In this document: positions 30,335 to 44,080 of the stretch, piece after piece
Layout of the letters: the number at the start of each line of letters is the position of its first letter
Numbering within the stretch: the stretch's first letter is position 1
DNA from: Chrysomallon squamiferum
Taxonomy: Eukaryota; Animalia; Mollusca
DNA length: 64,000 bases
NCBI GenBank assembly: GCA_012295275.1
Contig: CM022678.1
Coordinates: 17,174,001 to 17,238,000 of the forward strand
Direction: 5' to 3'
The notes under the pieces: model-generated
Database searches by the model: none
What the model was told of the DNA's origin: nothing
Seen by the model: the letters and a program-made list of their open reading frames with translations, nothing else
Program-made: the position numbers and the translations under genes

Positions 30335-30377
30335 ATGTCCCCGATGACAATTCTACTCTTTGTTTTATCGCAGACAG
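30335..30377 (+). CDS. Signal-peptide exon (intact)
   Basis: aaaaATG...ACAG|gtaagt encodes [14 protein letters not shown], phase 1. Joins the ShKT exon to give [23 protein letters not shown]. Confidence 0.8.
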
Positions 30378-33300
30378 GTAAGTGTTTTTGAATTGTTTAA
30401 ATATGTATTTGAATCTGTGTGCAGCATTTGCGTGTGAGGTTTGTATGTGCGTACTCGCGCGTGTTTTTGTGTGTTCAATTTTTTAGAATCTCTTAAATGT
30501 TTAGGCCACATTAAATAACTTTATTGGGCTTTTTTTCGTGTTAAAAATAATCTGACAATCTAATGAGAGGACAGGAAAATAGAGGATTTAGAAAATTAAA
30601 CTATAAATTTAATAGTTAAGTATAAGTGAATTAAATATAATTCTACATCGCACACATTTTATAATATTAATATATGTATCCATCTATTTATCCAGCTACC
30701 TATCTATATAAATGTATGATGTTTCAAATTCAGTGTACGCCGAAATATACGTACATCTGATGATGACAAAAACAAACAATTCTATGCTCATCAGAGACTT
30801 TGGTATACAAATACATATAGCCGTAGAATTTATTTCTAGTGATTTCTGTTCCTACGTTAAATAATTTGTCTTTATTATTTTTCTTCTTATAACAAAATTT
30901 TGTATATTTGTAAATATACTGCATATATAATATTCTCCAAAGTGACTGTATTAATAGTCCATCATACTCTATTGAAAAAACTTTCATAACGTTACTCTCC
31001 CTATTTCCAAGTAACAGATTTTTTTCATAAATACATTTTGTTTTCATTACAAAGATTAATATTTTATATAGAGTAAAACACAGTGAAATTGAAACTTAAA
31101 GCAGCTACACGTCCAAACACTCTGAGAGCTATGTCAGCAGAGCGTGTTTTCTGCCGAACCACGTGATATGTCGTGGCCATGGAAGCCGGTGTACCAGCCT
31201 CAAAACATTTAGGCCACGTAAAATAAATTATCAACTTTTTAGTGTTAAAAATAACCGGGAACCTTAATGAGAAAACTGTGACAAGAAAACATAATATTAA
31301 AATAATTAAACTGTAAACTTGGTAGAGTACCAGTCTCAAAACATTGACACGCATCCAAGTAGAATTTAAAGCATACAATAATAACAATTAGTTGATTAAT
31401 GCAAAATGTATATTCGTTAATTACAATGAAAGTTGCGTTAAGCATACTGATTCGCGATTCGTTAGTTAACAACTTAATGACAACAATTTGTGTAGTATTT
31501 GAAGAAGTCAGTTATGGAGATCTATTCAATTTTTTTTTTTTTTTTTTTTTTTTTTGTGCACATTCAATAACAATTTCGATGTTATTATCCACATAATGTG
31601 TAATCGTGGTCATTTGTACAATAATCCTTCCTAAATCCTACTTGAATGTGAAATAGTATATCATTTCAAGATACAAATTTAATCTATTGTTTAAGAAAGA
31701 AGTAAAAATAAAGGTAATAGGTGTATAATTTCCCCCTTCCCCGCCAGTCTAATTTTAACTAACAACAGTGAGCACAGTTTAAAAATATGTAGGCGATGTC
31801 TTTATACCGGTATCCATGACCTCTTCTCGAGTAAAGGAAATATTTTCCGGCCTGACACGACTTCTATTCTAAATATAGACATATGTCATTGTACAGATAT
31901 GAGAAAAAAAACATGTTTATTTTTAAATACGATCTGTTCCCCATAAGCTACAAAGAAACTGAAGCTATAGATAGGGGCCGAAGAAAGCACAAACGATATT
32001 CGTTCTAGTACTTTTTGGATAAGTTTAAGTCGTAGGTGATATTTTTTATTTTATTTTTTCGTTTAAACTATTTAACATTTTAAGATAGTGTGTTACGTAT
32101 AGTAGAGCAGATACTGCAACTTCAATAACTTTCTCGCTCACGAATTTACAACTACACTGAGATATCCGATTCATGCGGACTGAAGTCGAATTAAAAATGT
32201 CCTCGGCAATTACTGTATTATAGTTTTTTTTTGTTTTTGTTTTTTATCGTGTGAGTGTGCGAGCGCTCGTGTTTGTGTGTATGAGAGTACTCGCCTGCTT
32301 GTGTTTCTTTCTGATATAGAAACATTTAATGTTTAGGCCACATAAAATAAATTAGTTTATTTGTATTGAGTTAAAAATAACCTGGCACCTTAATGAGAAA
32401 AGTGGGACAGGGAAATACAATATCCAGATAATTAAACTGTAAACTTGGTAGTTATTTTTATAAATAAATGACATATAATTCTACATCCCACACAATTTAT
32501 AACATAGAAAAATACAATACTCCACATGTAGACTCGGCTCCGAAAAATACGTACTTCTGATTATTAAAAAACAGCTGTCGCCTAATCGGGATGTTTGGTA
32601 TAAAAATACATGGAGCCGTAGAATTTATTTCCCGTTCTTAGTGTTCCTAAATTAAATAACTTAGAAATCTTCCTCAGACTCTTACTTTTTATATAATTAA
32701 TTACCTTTTCGTTGTACTGTTTTTCTGGTAAAATTTCTTCACTGCTTCCAATAAACAGACTCTTTTCATTAATATATCATTAGAAAACTCAATATTTGAT
32801 GTATAGTAAAACAGAGTGAAATTGAAGCTTAAACAACTACAAGGTTACACACTTGTAGGAGCCTCTCAATACACATCTACCTCCAAACATTCTCCTTAGT
32901 TATGTGTGTCTATACGTTTAAATATAAATTTTAGCATGCAATAATTAAATTTAATTGGTTTAAGCAAAATTTATTTGTGTTAATAACAATCAAGGTCATG
33001 TTAAACATAATAATTCGGGATTCGTTAACTGTGAACTCAATGACAATAATTTGTATGGTAAGTGAATCACTTATGGAGATCAAACGAAATTTTAGAACAA
33101 AAATGTGTTTTGTCTTTACCGCACAAACATTTTCATTCTAGTATCCACATAATGTGTAACGTTGGTCATTTGTACAATAATCCTTCCGAAATCCTGCTTG
33201 AATTTCAAATAAAAGCTCAAATACAATTTTAGTCTATTATTTAACACAGTAGTAAAAATAAATGTAATAGGTTTATAGTTCTCCGCCACCAATTTAATCT

Positions 33301-42300: not shown

Positions 42301-44080
42301 ATTGTATCTATGTATATACATACATACATACCCACATCCATTCATGTATTTTAAATATTGAAATTTGTTTATTTATTTCATTTTCTTATTTATTTTTCTC
42401 TTTCTTTCTTTCTTTCTTTCATTATTTACTTAAAAAACTAAGACAAATAACCCAGAATTGACAAGAACTGTGACACAACTACACTACATGGACTGGAGGG
42501 ACAAACACGTGCCAAACAATGCACATGCATTGCTTGATTTTATCCTGTACGTGAGAAGGCTCAGAAATACGGGAGGTGATCGTCCGTTAATAGTTCACTG
42601 CAGGTATAGTGGCATACTGTTTTAATTGATTTTGTTTTCTTTTGAACAAATGTAAACAAACAAATAAATAAATATATAAATAAATAAAATAAAATAAACA
42701 AAAATAAAAGGATACGTAGTAACATTAATTTGCCTAATTCCATTTCTCCTTTCACTAAGAATCAAGGTTTTTAATTGTAATTTAAATTTTCTATAGCAGT
42801 TAGTGAAAAATGAACAAACTGCTAGAGACCTAATGTGTTGATAGACATTACATGCTGATCTGTTGAAAATAAATCAAATCAATAGTGTATGACATTTCTT
42901 TAGAATACTGACAGAATTCTCATTCTAAAGTTAAAATAAACAACTAAAGAGTAATTTTATATTTGTAGTTACAATTCTTTAAAATAAGTTCCTAAATAAT
43001 AGTTGTTATACATGTATTTTTTAATTTATATTTTTAAATATTTTTTATATTTTTATAAGAATATATTAAATAATAGTTGATATTTTCAGTTTCTCTTTTG
43101 AACCAGACAACTCAATTTTAATTTTCTAATTAATACAAAAATACAAATTATATATGTGTTTTTATTTTGAAATCTACCTAATTTTTTTTTCGCTTCTTTT
43201 TCTTTTTTTATATTTCATTTAACCCTTGTCGTTGTTCTTTGTCATTTTAAGAAGCTCAAATGAAGATCAGTTTTAAAATTATCAAAATTGTTTTCATTCC
43301 AGTGCTGGTGTTGGAAGGACAGGTACTTTCATAGCTATAGATTATCTTCTTGACCAGGCACTGAGCAGAGGAAGACTCGATGTAGTTGGGTGTGTGGCAC
43401 GTTTAAGAAAACAACGAAATCACATGGTGCAAACTCTTGTGAGTATTCTGGGTTATCTGCTGTTTAGAAACATTTCTCTTTTATAAACGTGTCGTTGTAC
43501 CGGTAATAGTGAAATATCCTGTTGATATAACTGTAATTAAAACCATGTCTGTATAATTTGTTAAGGCAGGTTATTATTCTATCGAAGCTTTGCTGATTAT
43601 AGACTATGGTCATACAAATAACAGGCTTGTCGGCTTTATAGGGAGTTTACAAAGAAAGAAAATTATATTAATCTGTATATTTGTGGTTTGTAATAATGTG
43701 TTTTTACAAAGTTATTATTATTATTTGTTATCATATTCTTGTGTCTTTTATTGTTATTATTCTTGTTGTTGTTATTGTTGTGGTTGTTACTGCAATGAAT
43801 TGTAAGTTGTATTATTATTATTATCATTATTATCATTTCGTGATGTGTTTGATGTTAGTTAATTGTTATTGCTTGCTTATTTACACAGTCAATTATTTTT
43901 TAATTTTCATTACAGATGCAGTACACTTTTATTCATCAACTTCTGTTAGAATGGCTGTTATCATTCAACATCATTTCAGAAATAGGTGACATAACAGAAA
44001 CTGACAGCAATGAAGAAAGAGAACATTTTTACGAAGCTGAATATTTCCGTAATCCAGGTTTCACGTATCATAAACGATGA
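30335..44080 (+). CDS. Copy D: receptor-type protein tyrosine phosphatase with signal peptide, ShKT-like domain, multiple EGF-like repeats, TM and a single PTP domain (13 exons; TM exon damaged as assembled)
   Basis: Exons 30335-30377, 35446-35553, 36383-37657, ~37883-37968, 38461-38570, 39183-39607, 39990-40068, 41159-41235, 41562-41696, 42102-42227, 42443-42603, 43303-43438, 43916-44080 (TGA). Phases are consistent except at the TM exon. Confidence 0.8.
32197..32250 (+). pseudogene. Inactivated duplicate leader exon
   Basis: Same upstream context as the other leaders; reads MSSAITVL then an in-frame TAG. Confidence 0.65.
35446..35553 (+). CDS. Copy D ShKT-like exon
   Basis: 108 nt, phase 1-1, [36 protein letters not shown]; spacing C-x6-C-x4-C-x7-C-x3-C-x2-C. 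Confidence 0.85.
36383..37657 (+). CDS. Copy D multi-EGF-like ectodomain exon
   Basis: 1275 nt, open, AG/GT bounded, within ORF 36319-37719. Confidence 0.9.
37883..37968 (+). CDS. Copy D transmembrane exon (boundaries corrupted)
   Basis: [24 protein letters not shown] aligns with the copy F TM segment; phases do not fit the flanking exons. Confidence 0.55.
38828..38931. repeat. (TAG)n microsatellite
   Basis: Directly visible run. Confidence 0.95.
39183..39607 (+). CDS. Copy D acidic juxtamembrane exon
   Basis: 425 nt, phase 1-0, ends GFHREFQ|gt at the start of the PTP domain. Confidence 0.85.
39990..44080 (+). CDS. Copy D classical PTP catalytic domain (7 exons) and C-terminal tail
   Basis: Motifs [67 protein letters not shown], all in phase. 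Confidence 0.9.

Follow-up and report, generated by a model that had tools for sequence, protein, structure and literature searches.

The gene studied here is one copy in a tandem row of duplicated genes in the window, i.e., the whole 64-kb stretch of DNA that was analysed and likely comes from a mollusc. It represents a known kind of receptor in a domain-swap variant that is undescribed, and it probably serves immune recognition. EGF-TM-PTP receptors are common in molluscs, judging from sequence comparison; only the ShKT-like tip together with a single PTP domain is new, since EGF-stalk receptor PTPs are already widespread and described.

Exon organisation of the target gene

The following exons were assigned to the gene.

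30335..30377, forward strand: exon 1, start codon and most of the predicted signal peptide; 14 codons, phase 1 donor
35446..35553, forward strand: exon 2 (Cys exon, 108 nt), predicted end of the signal peptide and six-Cys ShKT-like module; symmetric, phase 1-1
36383..37657, forward strand: exon 3 (EGF exon, 1275 nt), Cys-rich MEGF-type EGF stalk
37883..37968, forward strand: homologue of a TM-coding exon; hydrophobic frame preserved, but splice sites out of phase in the assembly
38461..38570, forward strand: basic juxtamembrane exon
39183..39607, forward strand: cytoplasmic linker exon, acidic, with Tyr; no Pfam match
39990..43438, forward strand: six PTP exons (39990-40068, 41159-41235, 41562-41696, 42102-42227, 42443-42603, 43303-43438), a single D1-like domain with [17 protein letters not shown]
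43916..44080, forward strand: last exon, PTP end, 54-codon frame, Tyr-containing tail and stop

The first three exons have canonical GT/AG ends, all in phase 1, and the 12 exons other than the TM exon are canonical and open across approximately 950 codons. The signal peptide was called on exon 1 by eye; intact homologues of this exon were found at 47445 and 63901. The small exon which the original prediction had put at the mature N-terminus is present with canonical ends, and it encodes the peptide given there.

The TM segment was the weak point. The hydrophobic frame at 37883-37966 peaks at a Kyte-Doolittle value of 2.81 (averaged across 19 residues), and its homologue in paralogue E is the TM exon 55100-55199, which is canonical. 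The splice sites of the target match those of the paralogue at neither end and do not keep the phase. Canonical GT/AG routes through the region numbered 720; 14 of them were open and in phase, 13 of these in the TM frame, and all 13 rely on a downstream donor of low score (3.0 or -1.2, compared with 8.1 for the paralogue donor). Thus, the predicted TM segment exists as a hydrophobic frame, but good in-phase splice sites are lacking, which had been overlooked, and the copy as assembled is therefore either mis-assembled or decaying. That the family is real while this copy is a recent pseudogene or encodes a TM-less product, with an mRNA that shifts frame or skips the membrane anchor, appears unlikely to us. 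It would account for the lack of a strong in-phase route through the TM exon, and all other copies in the window are damaged or incomplete. However, the remaining 12 exons are intact, the PTP dN/dS is 0.38, and both defects are confined to a single short exon that immediately follows an extended poly-T tract; cytosine makes up 3% there, compared with 10% in the paralogue. Defects beside poly-T with a cytosine dip are a pattern typical of sequencing error. In RNA run X1 the contig cover over the TM bin was 27.9, compared with at least 287 in the other 29 bins; this was not counted toward mis-assembly, since low-complexity stretches are skipped.

Paralogue array, transcripts and divergence

At least five other copies were found in the 64 kb.

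4008..7483, forward strand: paralogue A, six-Cys exon, open EGF exon and first PTP exon
20753..22140, forward strand: paralogue B, Cys exon with Cys1 replaced (upstream Cys kept) and truncated EGF exon
24050..27521, forward strand: paralogue B2, exon 1 without ATG and Cys exon with stop and frameshift
47445..60862, forward strand: paralogue D/E, exon 1, two tandem units of Cys exon and EGF exon, full intracellular exon set
63901..63943, forward strand: exon 1 of a further copy, continuing beyond the window edge

Paralogue A has a deletion from the TM exon into the linker exon, and its later PTP exons were not found; in B2 a deletion runs from the EGF exon into the PTP exon, and both EGF exons of D/E shift frame. 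Clustered paralogues, as known for molluscan MEGF/GBD receptor PTPs, are thus present.

RNA reads were mapped to 30200-42900, a range outside which the last two exons lie. Of 4096 aligned RNA contigs, 2111 showed 90-95% likeness, and the summed depths together with the contig numbers hint at many gene copies, although they do not amount to a copy number. In contigs that come from a paralogue, and that are approximately 91% identical to the target, the Cys exon is spliced at its end to the EGF exon, i.e., the equivalent of junction 35553/36383, and one paralogue contig (X3 record 20) joins three PTP exons. Among the contigs listed, none was of the target itself, and neither the exon 1 junction (30377/35446) nor the TM junctions were found. 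The proposed order of signal peptide, ShKT, EGF, TM and PTP is supported at the level of the family, but without a TM exon that is spliceable in phase in this copy as assembled.

Divergence between the target and paralogue E was greatest at the tip. Amino-acid identity was 57% in the tip, 63% in the distal EGF part, 83-89% in the proximal EGF part and 88% in the PTP. The corresponding dN/dS values, 0.81, 0.64, 0.50-0.32 and 0.38, are inflated by decaying copies, and tip and PTP did not differ significantly (Fisher p=0.14). We weighed positive selection on the tip but do not claim it; the pooled dN/dS was 1.19 over 10 non-independent pairs, with damaged copies among them.

Identity of the six-cysteine tip

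The Cys exon carries six Cys with the spacing C-x6-C-x4-C-x7-C-x3-C-x2-C, i.e., a ShK-like spacing with the C-x3-C-x2-C ending of ShKT domains. Four matches to a six-Cys spacing pattern were found in the six-frame translated window, all of them copies of the Cys exon. As this exon also recurs six times in the array, it is not a product of chance. The spacing alone is nevertheless weak evidence, because the same spacing, as a loose pattern, gave 29 matches in homologues, 27 of them in ordinary EGF repeats.

The Pfam ShK model (PF01549; gathering threshold 20.9 bits), proposed earlier as a check, matched none of the five copies scanned, the sixth having been left out for its stop. We therefore use the label ShKT-like and do not file the tip under PF01549; mollusc ShKT domains below the Pfam threshold are known (PMC6409789). 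A VanA_C match of the Cys exon in Pfam (E=0.09) was taken as chance. Better agreement came from the ESM Atlas, where the tip had a feature likeness of 0.93 to a ShK-bearing cluster (ShK on 11% of its members). The row representing 22 of the 30 matches was this kind of cluster, with 190 of 256 features in common, and the ten best matches having a family all agreed with ShK. The PDB profile search gave five matches, the only full-length one being the ShK homologue AsK132958 (PDB 5wcv), albeit weak (E=1.8). The structural comparison with ShK was less informative: the AlphaFold model of the tip was poor (pLDDT 57), with a helix at residues 21-30, and Foldseek and VIA fold searches with this model gave no match. 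On these grounds the tip is likely a ShKT domain, sub-threshold in Pfam, and the name proposed for it stays the best label in spite of the blank Pfam and fold searches.

The exon might instead be an EGF or furin-like repeat that has degenerated and lies out of register, or else a disulfide module peculiar to the lineage. The protein would then be an ordinary MEGF receptor PTP without D2; we regard this as rather improbable. Besides the failed Pfam and fold searches and the EGF pieces fitting the spacing, one EGF piece beat both oyster ShK-like units (see below) in hhalign, and Cys1 is missing in two stop-free copies, B and D. Against this, 25 of the 27 spacing-matching EGF pieces have an aromatic-Gly motif that the Cys exon lacks, the module has a phase 1-1 exon of its own, the model places a helix in it, and the Atlas matches as well as the sole full-length PDB profile match point to ShK.

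Sequence relatives of the tip were few. A PDB sequence search with the single Cys exon gave no matches, a protein search with the exon peptide gave no candidate, and nothing was found in metagenome scans. When 1.84 billion representatives were searched by profile, one match reached E<=0.001, a mucin-like repeat protein that was rejected, as its score was summed over 16 weak stretches; there was hence no true relative of the exon among the representatives. The description of the receptor as lineage-specific accordingly fits the exon sequence, but probably not the architecture, given an Ostrea edulis model with ShK-like units before EGF-TM-PTP-PTP.

No Lys or Tyr occurs between Cys3 and Cys4 of the tip, and this loop is acidic. 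The Lys-Tyr dyad that marks Kv-blocking ShK-type toxins (defined in PMC6409789) is thus absent, as had been stated, and the view that channel block is not implied was judged reasonable.

EGF stalk and phosphatase

The EGF exon is open over 424 residues, of which 73 are Cys; it has 11 N-glycosylation sequons and contains a recent internal duplication of 96 bp (37299-37487). Multiple EGF repeats are the ectodomain known from molluscan MEGF/GBD receptor PTPs. In Pfam the exon matched EGF_TEN only, below cut-off, and no Pfam match to EMI, Ig, FN3, MAM, carbonic anhydrase or galactose-binding domains was obtained in the ectodomain exons. A PDB sequence search with the EGF exon gave no matches, and a protein search with the N-terminal EGF region at near lengths gave one candidate and nothing significant. 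The 23 ectodomain homologues were 28-37% identical; 18 were named, all of them molluscan, under database names such as MEGF6/10-like. Eleven of the 23 have a PTP, and two of these a galactose-binding-type tip (the domain was found by Pfam scan in P0012 and P0018); two other homologues have a kinase. This varying presence suggests that tips and tails are swapped within the class.

All nine intracellular exons have canonical ends, and together they encode 471 residues with no internal stop, including the motifs KNRY, WRD, [10 protein letters not shown] and the Q-loop. All three mid-PTP exons scanned passed the Pfam Y_phosphatase model, while the last exon alone failed, and the HMM match together with KNRY, the WPD-loop Asp, HCxxGxxR and the Q-loop assigns the domain to the classical PTPs (PF00102). 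Since the nucleophile loop, the general-acid Asp and the Q-loop are kept, the phosphatase is predicted to be active, perhaps weakened by WRD in the place of WPD. The PTP clustered with the D1 domains of the homologues (100/100), with 32-42% identity to D1 in eight long matches, compared with 21-28% to D2. The claim of a single PTP domain was borne out: the reading frame stops after D1, without the tandem of molluscan MEGF/GBD receptor PTPs, and D2 queries from seven homologues matched only D1 exons in the window.

Proposed function

Receptor PTPs have common roles in adhesion and neural wiring, and for the class a model is established in which clustering or repositioning by ligand alters substrate access. 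We lean towards the reading that the tandem paralogues, with a predicted signal peptide, a divergent ShK-type tip, an EGF stalk, a hydrophobic segment and one PTP, are variable innate-immune surface receptors; by analogy with snail resistance loci, an immune role of the family is likely. The glycosylated stalk would keep the tip off the membrane, and the tip, the part diverging most between paralogues, would recognise a surface ligand that is foreign or non-self. Ligand-bound receptors might then be clustered or repositioned, which would alter how well the phosphatase reaches phosphotyrosine substrates. The likely ancestors of the family are molluscan MEGF receptor PTPs that acquired an ShKT-like exon of symmetric phase 1-1 and lost D2; its present turnover would be birth and death.

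It is doubtful, in our view, that the receptor is instead an adhesion or developmental (e.g., neural) PTP, as such receptors often are, or that it uses its tethered tip to modulate a potassium channel of its own or an adjacent cell. The ShKT domain of MMP23 does modulate Kv1 channels despite missing the dyad (PMC6409789), but the present tip is acidic in the loop concerned, AsK132958, its nearest match in the PDB, showed no activity on those Kv channels that were tested (PMC5793123), and fast duplication, decay and tip divergence would suit changing ligands better than a conserved one. More tentatively, the innate-immune receptors proposed here could form an undescribed and much expanded family, with the ShK fold co-opted as a hypervariable ligand-binding tip, each paralogue offering a different ShK-like surface within a recognition repertoire that is germline-encoded, and a design common to oysters but missed below Pfam detection.

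Among the leading candidates for snail parasite resistance are EGF-stalk receptor phosphatases that occur in clusters. A ShK-like module of approximately 30 residues in place of the lectin tip, combined with a single PTP, suggests that specificity may be changed by swapping one symmetric exon, and such a tip is small enough for synthesis, so that ligand identification is directly testable. It would also give a receptor-sensor role to a scaffold that so far is familiar chiefly as part of toxins and secreted enzymes. ShK-like modules of this kind escape standard annotation.

Comparison with known systems

The classical PTP exon matched 36 PDB sequences at E<=1e-8, vertebrate receptor PTPs (PTPRS, LAR, PTPRA, PTPRT) among them, from which the target differs in having WRD for WPD and no Ig, FN3, MAM or carbonic anhydrase match. 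R3-type receptor PTPs such as PTPRJ have one catalytic domain, as does the target, a likeness in domain count. The EGF-repeat stalk is shared with MEGF10/Draper/CED-1 and SCARF scavenger receptors; MEGF10/Draper have an N-terminal EMI domain and no catalytic domain, while the target has a phosphatase and no EMI match. The earlier comparison set was too narrow, as EGF-stalk receptor PTPs are widespread in molluscs and have been described in Biomphalaria. AsK132958 resembles the tip in its six Cys, in the missing functional dyad and in a near-identical spacing (x6, x4, x8, x3, x2 compared with x6, x4, x7, x3, x2); however, it is a free peptide, whereas the tip is a membrane-receptor module below Pfam detection.

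The oyster model mentioned above, Ostrea edulis XP_056003708.1 (P0009; database name MEGF6-like protein only), has in its C-terminal part ShK-like units directly before EGF repeats, TM and PTP, the order predicted for the target, but it differs in having two units, a Ser/Thr linker and tandem PTPs. Judging by an internal TM, it looks like two fused genes. Its units (residues 491-552) reached E=0.17 with Pfam ShK, below cut-off, and 0.86 with Atlas ShK clusters; the PDB sequence search with this stretch gave six non-ShK matches (snakins, zinc fingers), and its AlphaFold model was poor (pLDDT 44). The units have little sequence likeness to the Cys exon of the window, and a profile of the window's Cys exons did not rank them above EGF pieces, so homology of the tips is not shown.

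No paper on a ShKT-EGF-PTP combination was found in the literature search, and the parts of PMC4133350 and PMC9848320 available do not describe the architecture. The term ShK is absent from the main texts of PMC12297450 and PMC13712769, and in the searched supplements of these Biomphalaria papers it marks two LG11L astacin genes only. The closest described systems are nevertheless the MEGF/GBD receptor-like PTPs of B. sudanica SudRes1 (PMC12297450) and the 'Subgroup 1C' scavenger class F-like receptors of B. glabrata LG5R (PMC13712769), clustered in resistance loci by evidence of association, not function. Both groups have a MEGF stalk and a cytoplasmic classical PTP, like the target, and are single-pass, as is predicted for the target family; they share with the target family paralogue clusters with varying ectodomains. 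They differ from the target in carrying a galactose-binding or fucolectin domain at the tip, where the target has its ShKT-like module, and tandem PTP domains, where it has one.

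Gene structure and phosphatase domain

The DNA of the window is eukaryotic, AT-rich and laden with microsatellites. The target gene comprises 13 exons, and exons of its type recur in several paralogues. The features are listed below.

30335-44080 (+): target gene
35446-35553 (+): exon 2 of the target, with six cysteines (Cys exon, the tip)
36383-37657 (+): exon 3, the EGF exon
37883-37966 (+): hydrophobic frame of the transmembrane (TM) exon
38461-38570 (+): juxtamembrane exon
4.0-7.5 kb: paralogue A, recurring exons
20.8-22.1 kb: paralogue B, recurring exons
24.1-27.5 kb: paralogue B2, recurring exons
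47.4-60.9 kb: paralogue D/E, recurring exons
63.9 kb: a further exon 1

Exon 1, the Cys exon (108 nt) and the EGF exon (1275 nt) are all in phase 1 with canonical ends, and the nine canonical intracellular exons give 471 residues without a stop. These contain KNRY, DYING, YIAAQGP, WRD, [10 protein letters not shown] and the Q-loop, and each of three mid-PTP exons passed Pfam Y_phosphatase. The identity of the PTP domain is 32-42% to D1 (eight long matches) versus 21-28% to D2 of the homologues, and it was placed on the D1 side with support 100/100 in a tree confined to 16 domains, 8 D1 and 7 D2 coming from these homologues. A single PTP domain had been predicted, and this held, since D2 queries from seven homologues matched D1 exons only. 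The receptor would have a type I membrane topology.

Both copies retaining the exon concerned (42443-42603 and 59175-59330) have WRD in place of the WPD loop motif, which makes this a family trait. The target stalk is one in-frame EGF-like unit longer through a 96-bp tandem duplication (37299-37487, 95% matches). The last exon of the target (43916-44080) has 54 codons and continues into a tyrosine-containing tail, while those of two paralogues (60618-60695 and 27274-27351) stop after 25 codons; the signalling tails may thus differ between copies.

TM exon and splicing

The original prediction of the gene was largely real, with the exception of a splice defect at the TM exon, which it did not flag. 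The hydrophobic frame shares 60% identity with the homologous TM exon of paralogue E downstream (55100-55199), which has canonical splice sites and is in phase; in the target, neither splice site agrees with its counterpart in E, and the sites are out of phase. Between the EGF exon and the juxtamembrane exon, 14 of 720 GT/AG routes keep an open frame in phase. Of these, 13 run through the TM frame, and each depends on a downstream donor with a score of 3.0 or -1.2. On the same small matrix the donor of the paralogue, which was outside the training set, scores 8.1. The target TM exon adjoins a long upstream poly-T run, and its cytosine content is 3% versus 10% in the paralogue. Decay of the target copy itself would be compatible with the family model, yet the other 12 exons are clean; we therefore think an assembly error likelier, and consider decay improbable.

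Contigs from four public sequencing runs, including three RNA runs of one study, were aligned to 30200-42900 at 90% likeness. Among those listed, two contigs of RNA run X4 begin at the EGF exon, the longer with about 91% identity to that of the target, and carry an 18-letter loose end. This corresponds to the last bases of the Cys exon, with a perfect match to copies B and D and two differences from the target. Splicing therefore connects the Cys exon with the EGF exon in members of the family. None of the listed contigs came from the target copy itself, and none crossed the exon 1 or TM junctions. One listed contig of run X3 contains three PTP exons spliced together (about 93% identity).

Identity of the tip

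The cysteine spacing of the exon is C-x6-C-x4-C-x7-C-x3-C-x2-C, ending K-T-C-G-x-C. A profile built from five Cys-exon copies matched five PDB entries at E<=10; AsK132958, an ShK homologue, was the only one to span all six cysteines (E=1.8). In the ESM Atlas the three top rows scored 0.93, and the row for 22 of 30 hits was a cluster in which 11% of the members carry Pfam ShK (190 of 256 features in common); the ten best family-assigned hits agree with an ShK cluster, with the reservation that shuffled proteins attain 0.9 in four to ten of 100 cases. The aromatic-Gly motif present in 25 of 27 EGF pieces of matching spacing is absent from the exon. Speaking against an ShKT assignment, Pfam ShK matched none of the five copies, the structure model was of poor quality, fold searches returned no match, and a search of 1.84 billion representatives gave no true relative. 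HMMER is known to overlook some ShKT domains of molluscs (PMC6409789). We consider an ShK-type fold quite probable and label the tip ShKT-like; a different fold is rather unlikely.

The absence of the ShK Lys-Tyr dyad, as predicted, was confirmed. AsK132958 likewise lacks a functional dyad and is inactive on the Kv channels tested (PMC5793123), although channel modulation is possible despite dyad loss (PMC6409789).

Tandem array

Within the window, every copy besides the target is deleted, truncated, frameshifted or incomplete. Six copies of the Cys exon occur; A, the target and E keep all six cysteines, in B Cys1 is missing, in D both Cys1 and Cys4, and B2 contains a stop. Identity between the target and E is 57% in the tip, 63% and then 83-89% along the stalk, and 88% in the PTP, and dN/dS drops from 0.81 (tip) to 0.38 (PTP), a contrast which is not significant (p=0.14).

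At 50633-54777 two Cys-exon plus EGF-exon units stand in tandem before a single TM and PTP set, both EGF exons shifting frame, either as an internal duplication or as two collapsed genes. A satellite array of about 10 kb (7860-18220) lies immediately 3' of the first PTP exon of A; each monomer of about 517 bp is about 81% identical to its neighbours and 95-97% identical to the monomer about 1035 bp away, the pattern of a dimeric higher-order repeat. In B2 (25041-25403) and D (50758-51157) a 35-bp minisatellite lies 3' of the Cys exon, and the region upstream of exon 1 is duplicated inside first introns (32060-32260 and 48919-49046), once with a broken signal-peptide exon.

Proposed function and related receptors

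The variable tip, carried on a presumably extended and glycosylated EGF stalk, would bind a ligand, and clustering of the receptor could then regulate the phosphatase. By analogy with snail receptors, and because of the birth-and-death pattern, a role in immune recognition is somewhat favoured; an adhesion, neural or channel-modulating role seems doubtful. Copy decay, a non-ShK tip and such a role are mutually compatible.

Ectodomain searches gave 23 homologues, and all 18 named ones are bivalve or gastropod, at only 28-37% identity, which makes a mollusc the likely source of the window; the appearance of the introns prompted no more than a guess at a cephalopod. Receptor PTPs on an EGF stalk are common among molluscs: a PTP domain is present in 11 of the 23, two of these with a galactose-binding-type tip. 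Two bivalve homologues (P0014 and P0016) carry a tyrosine-kinase domain and no phosphatase on a similar stalk, possibly an opposing receptor class.

The target combines common modules in a combination which we did not find in print: titles and abstract openings from a full-text literature search covering few subscription journals held no description of ShKT with EGF and PTP. The term "ShK" is missing from the main texts of PMC12297450 and PMC13712769 and, one scanned file excepted, from the searchable supplements of the former; in the 10 searched files of the 27 listed for the latter, the nine ShKT rows all come from two LG11L astacin gene models. At least one oyster annotation probably contains the same combination, so far overlooked. 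Ostrea edulis XP_056003708.1 (P0009, one of the 23) has two ShK-like units, then EGF repeats, a TM and a tandem PTP, in contrast to one module and a single PTP in the target. Its units score below the Pfam ShK cut-off (E=0.17), and their Atlas score of 0.86 to ShK clusters counts as no more than a lead; a profile of the window's Cys exons ranked these units no higher than EGF pieces, so that homology of the two tips is at most putative. An internal TM and a signal-peptide-like stretch precede the units (residues 340-490), so this model is probably a fusion of two neighbouring genes.

The Mercenaria homologue P0013 is like the target in its single annotated PTP. MEGF/GBD receptor PTPs with tandem PTPs are clustered in a schistosome-resistance locus of Biomphalaria sudanica (PMC12297450), and the same design is found in B. 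glabrata (PMC13712769). With no GBD and one PTP, the target falls outside these receptors as defined, and it does not qualify as an ShKT protein at Pfam grade either, although its mode of action is likely similar to theirs.
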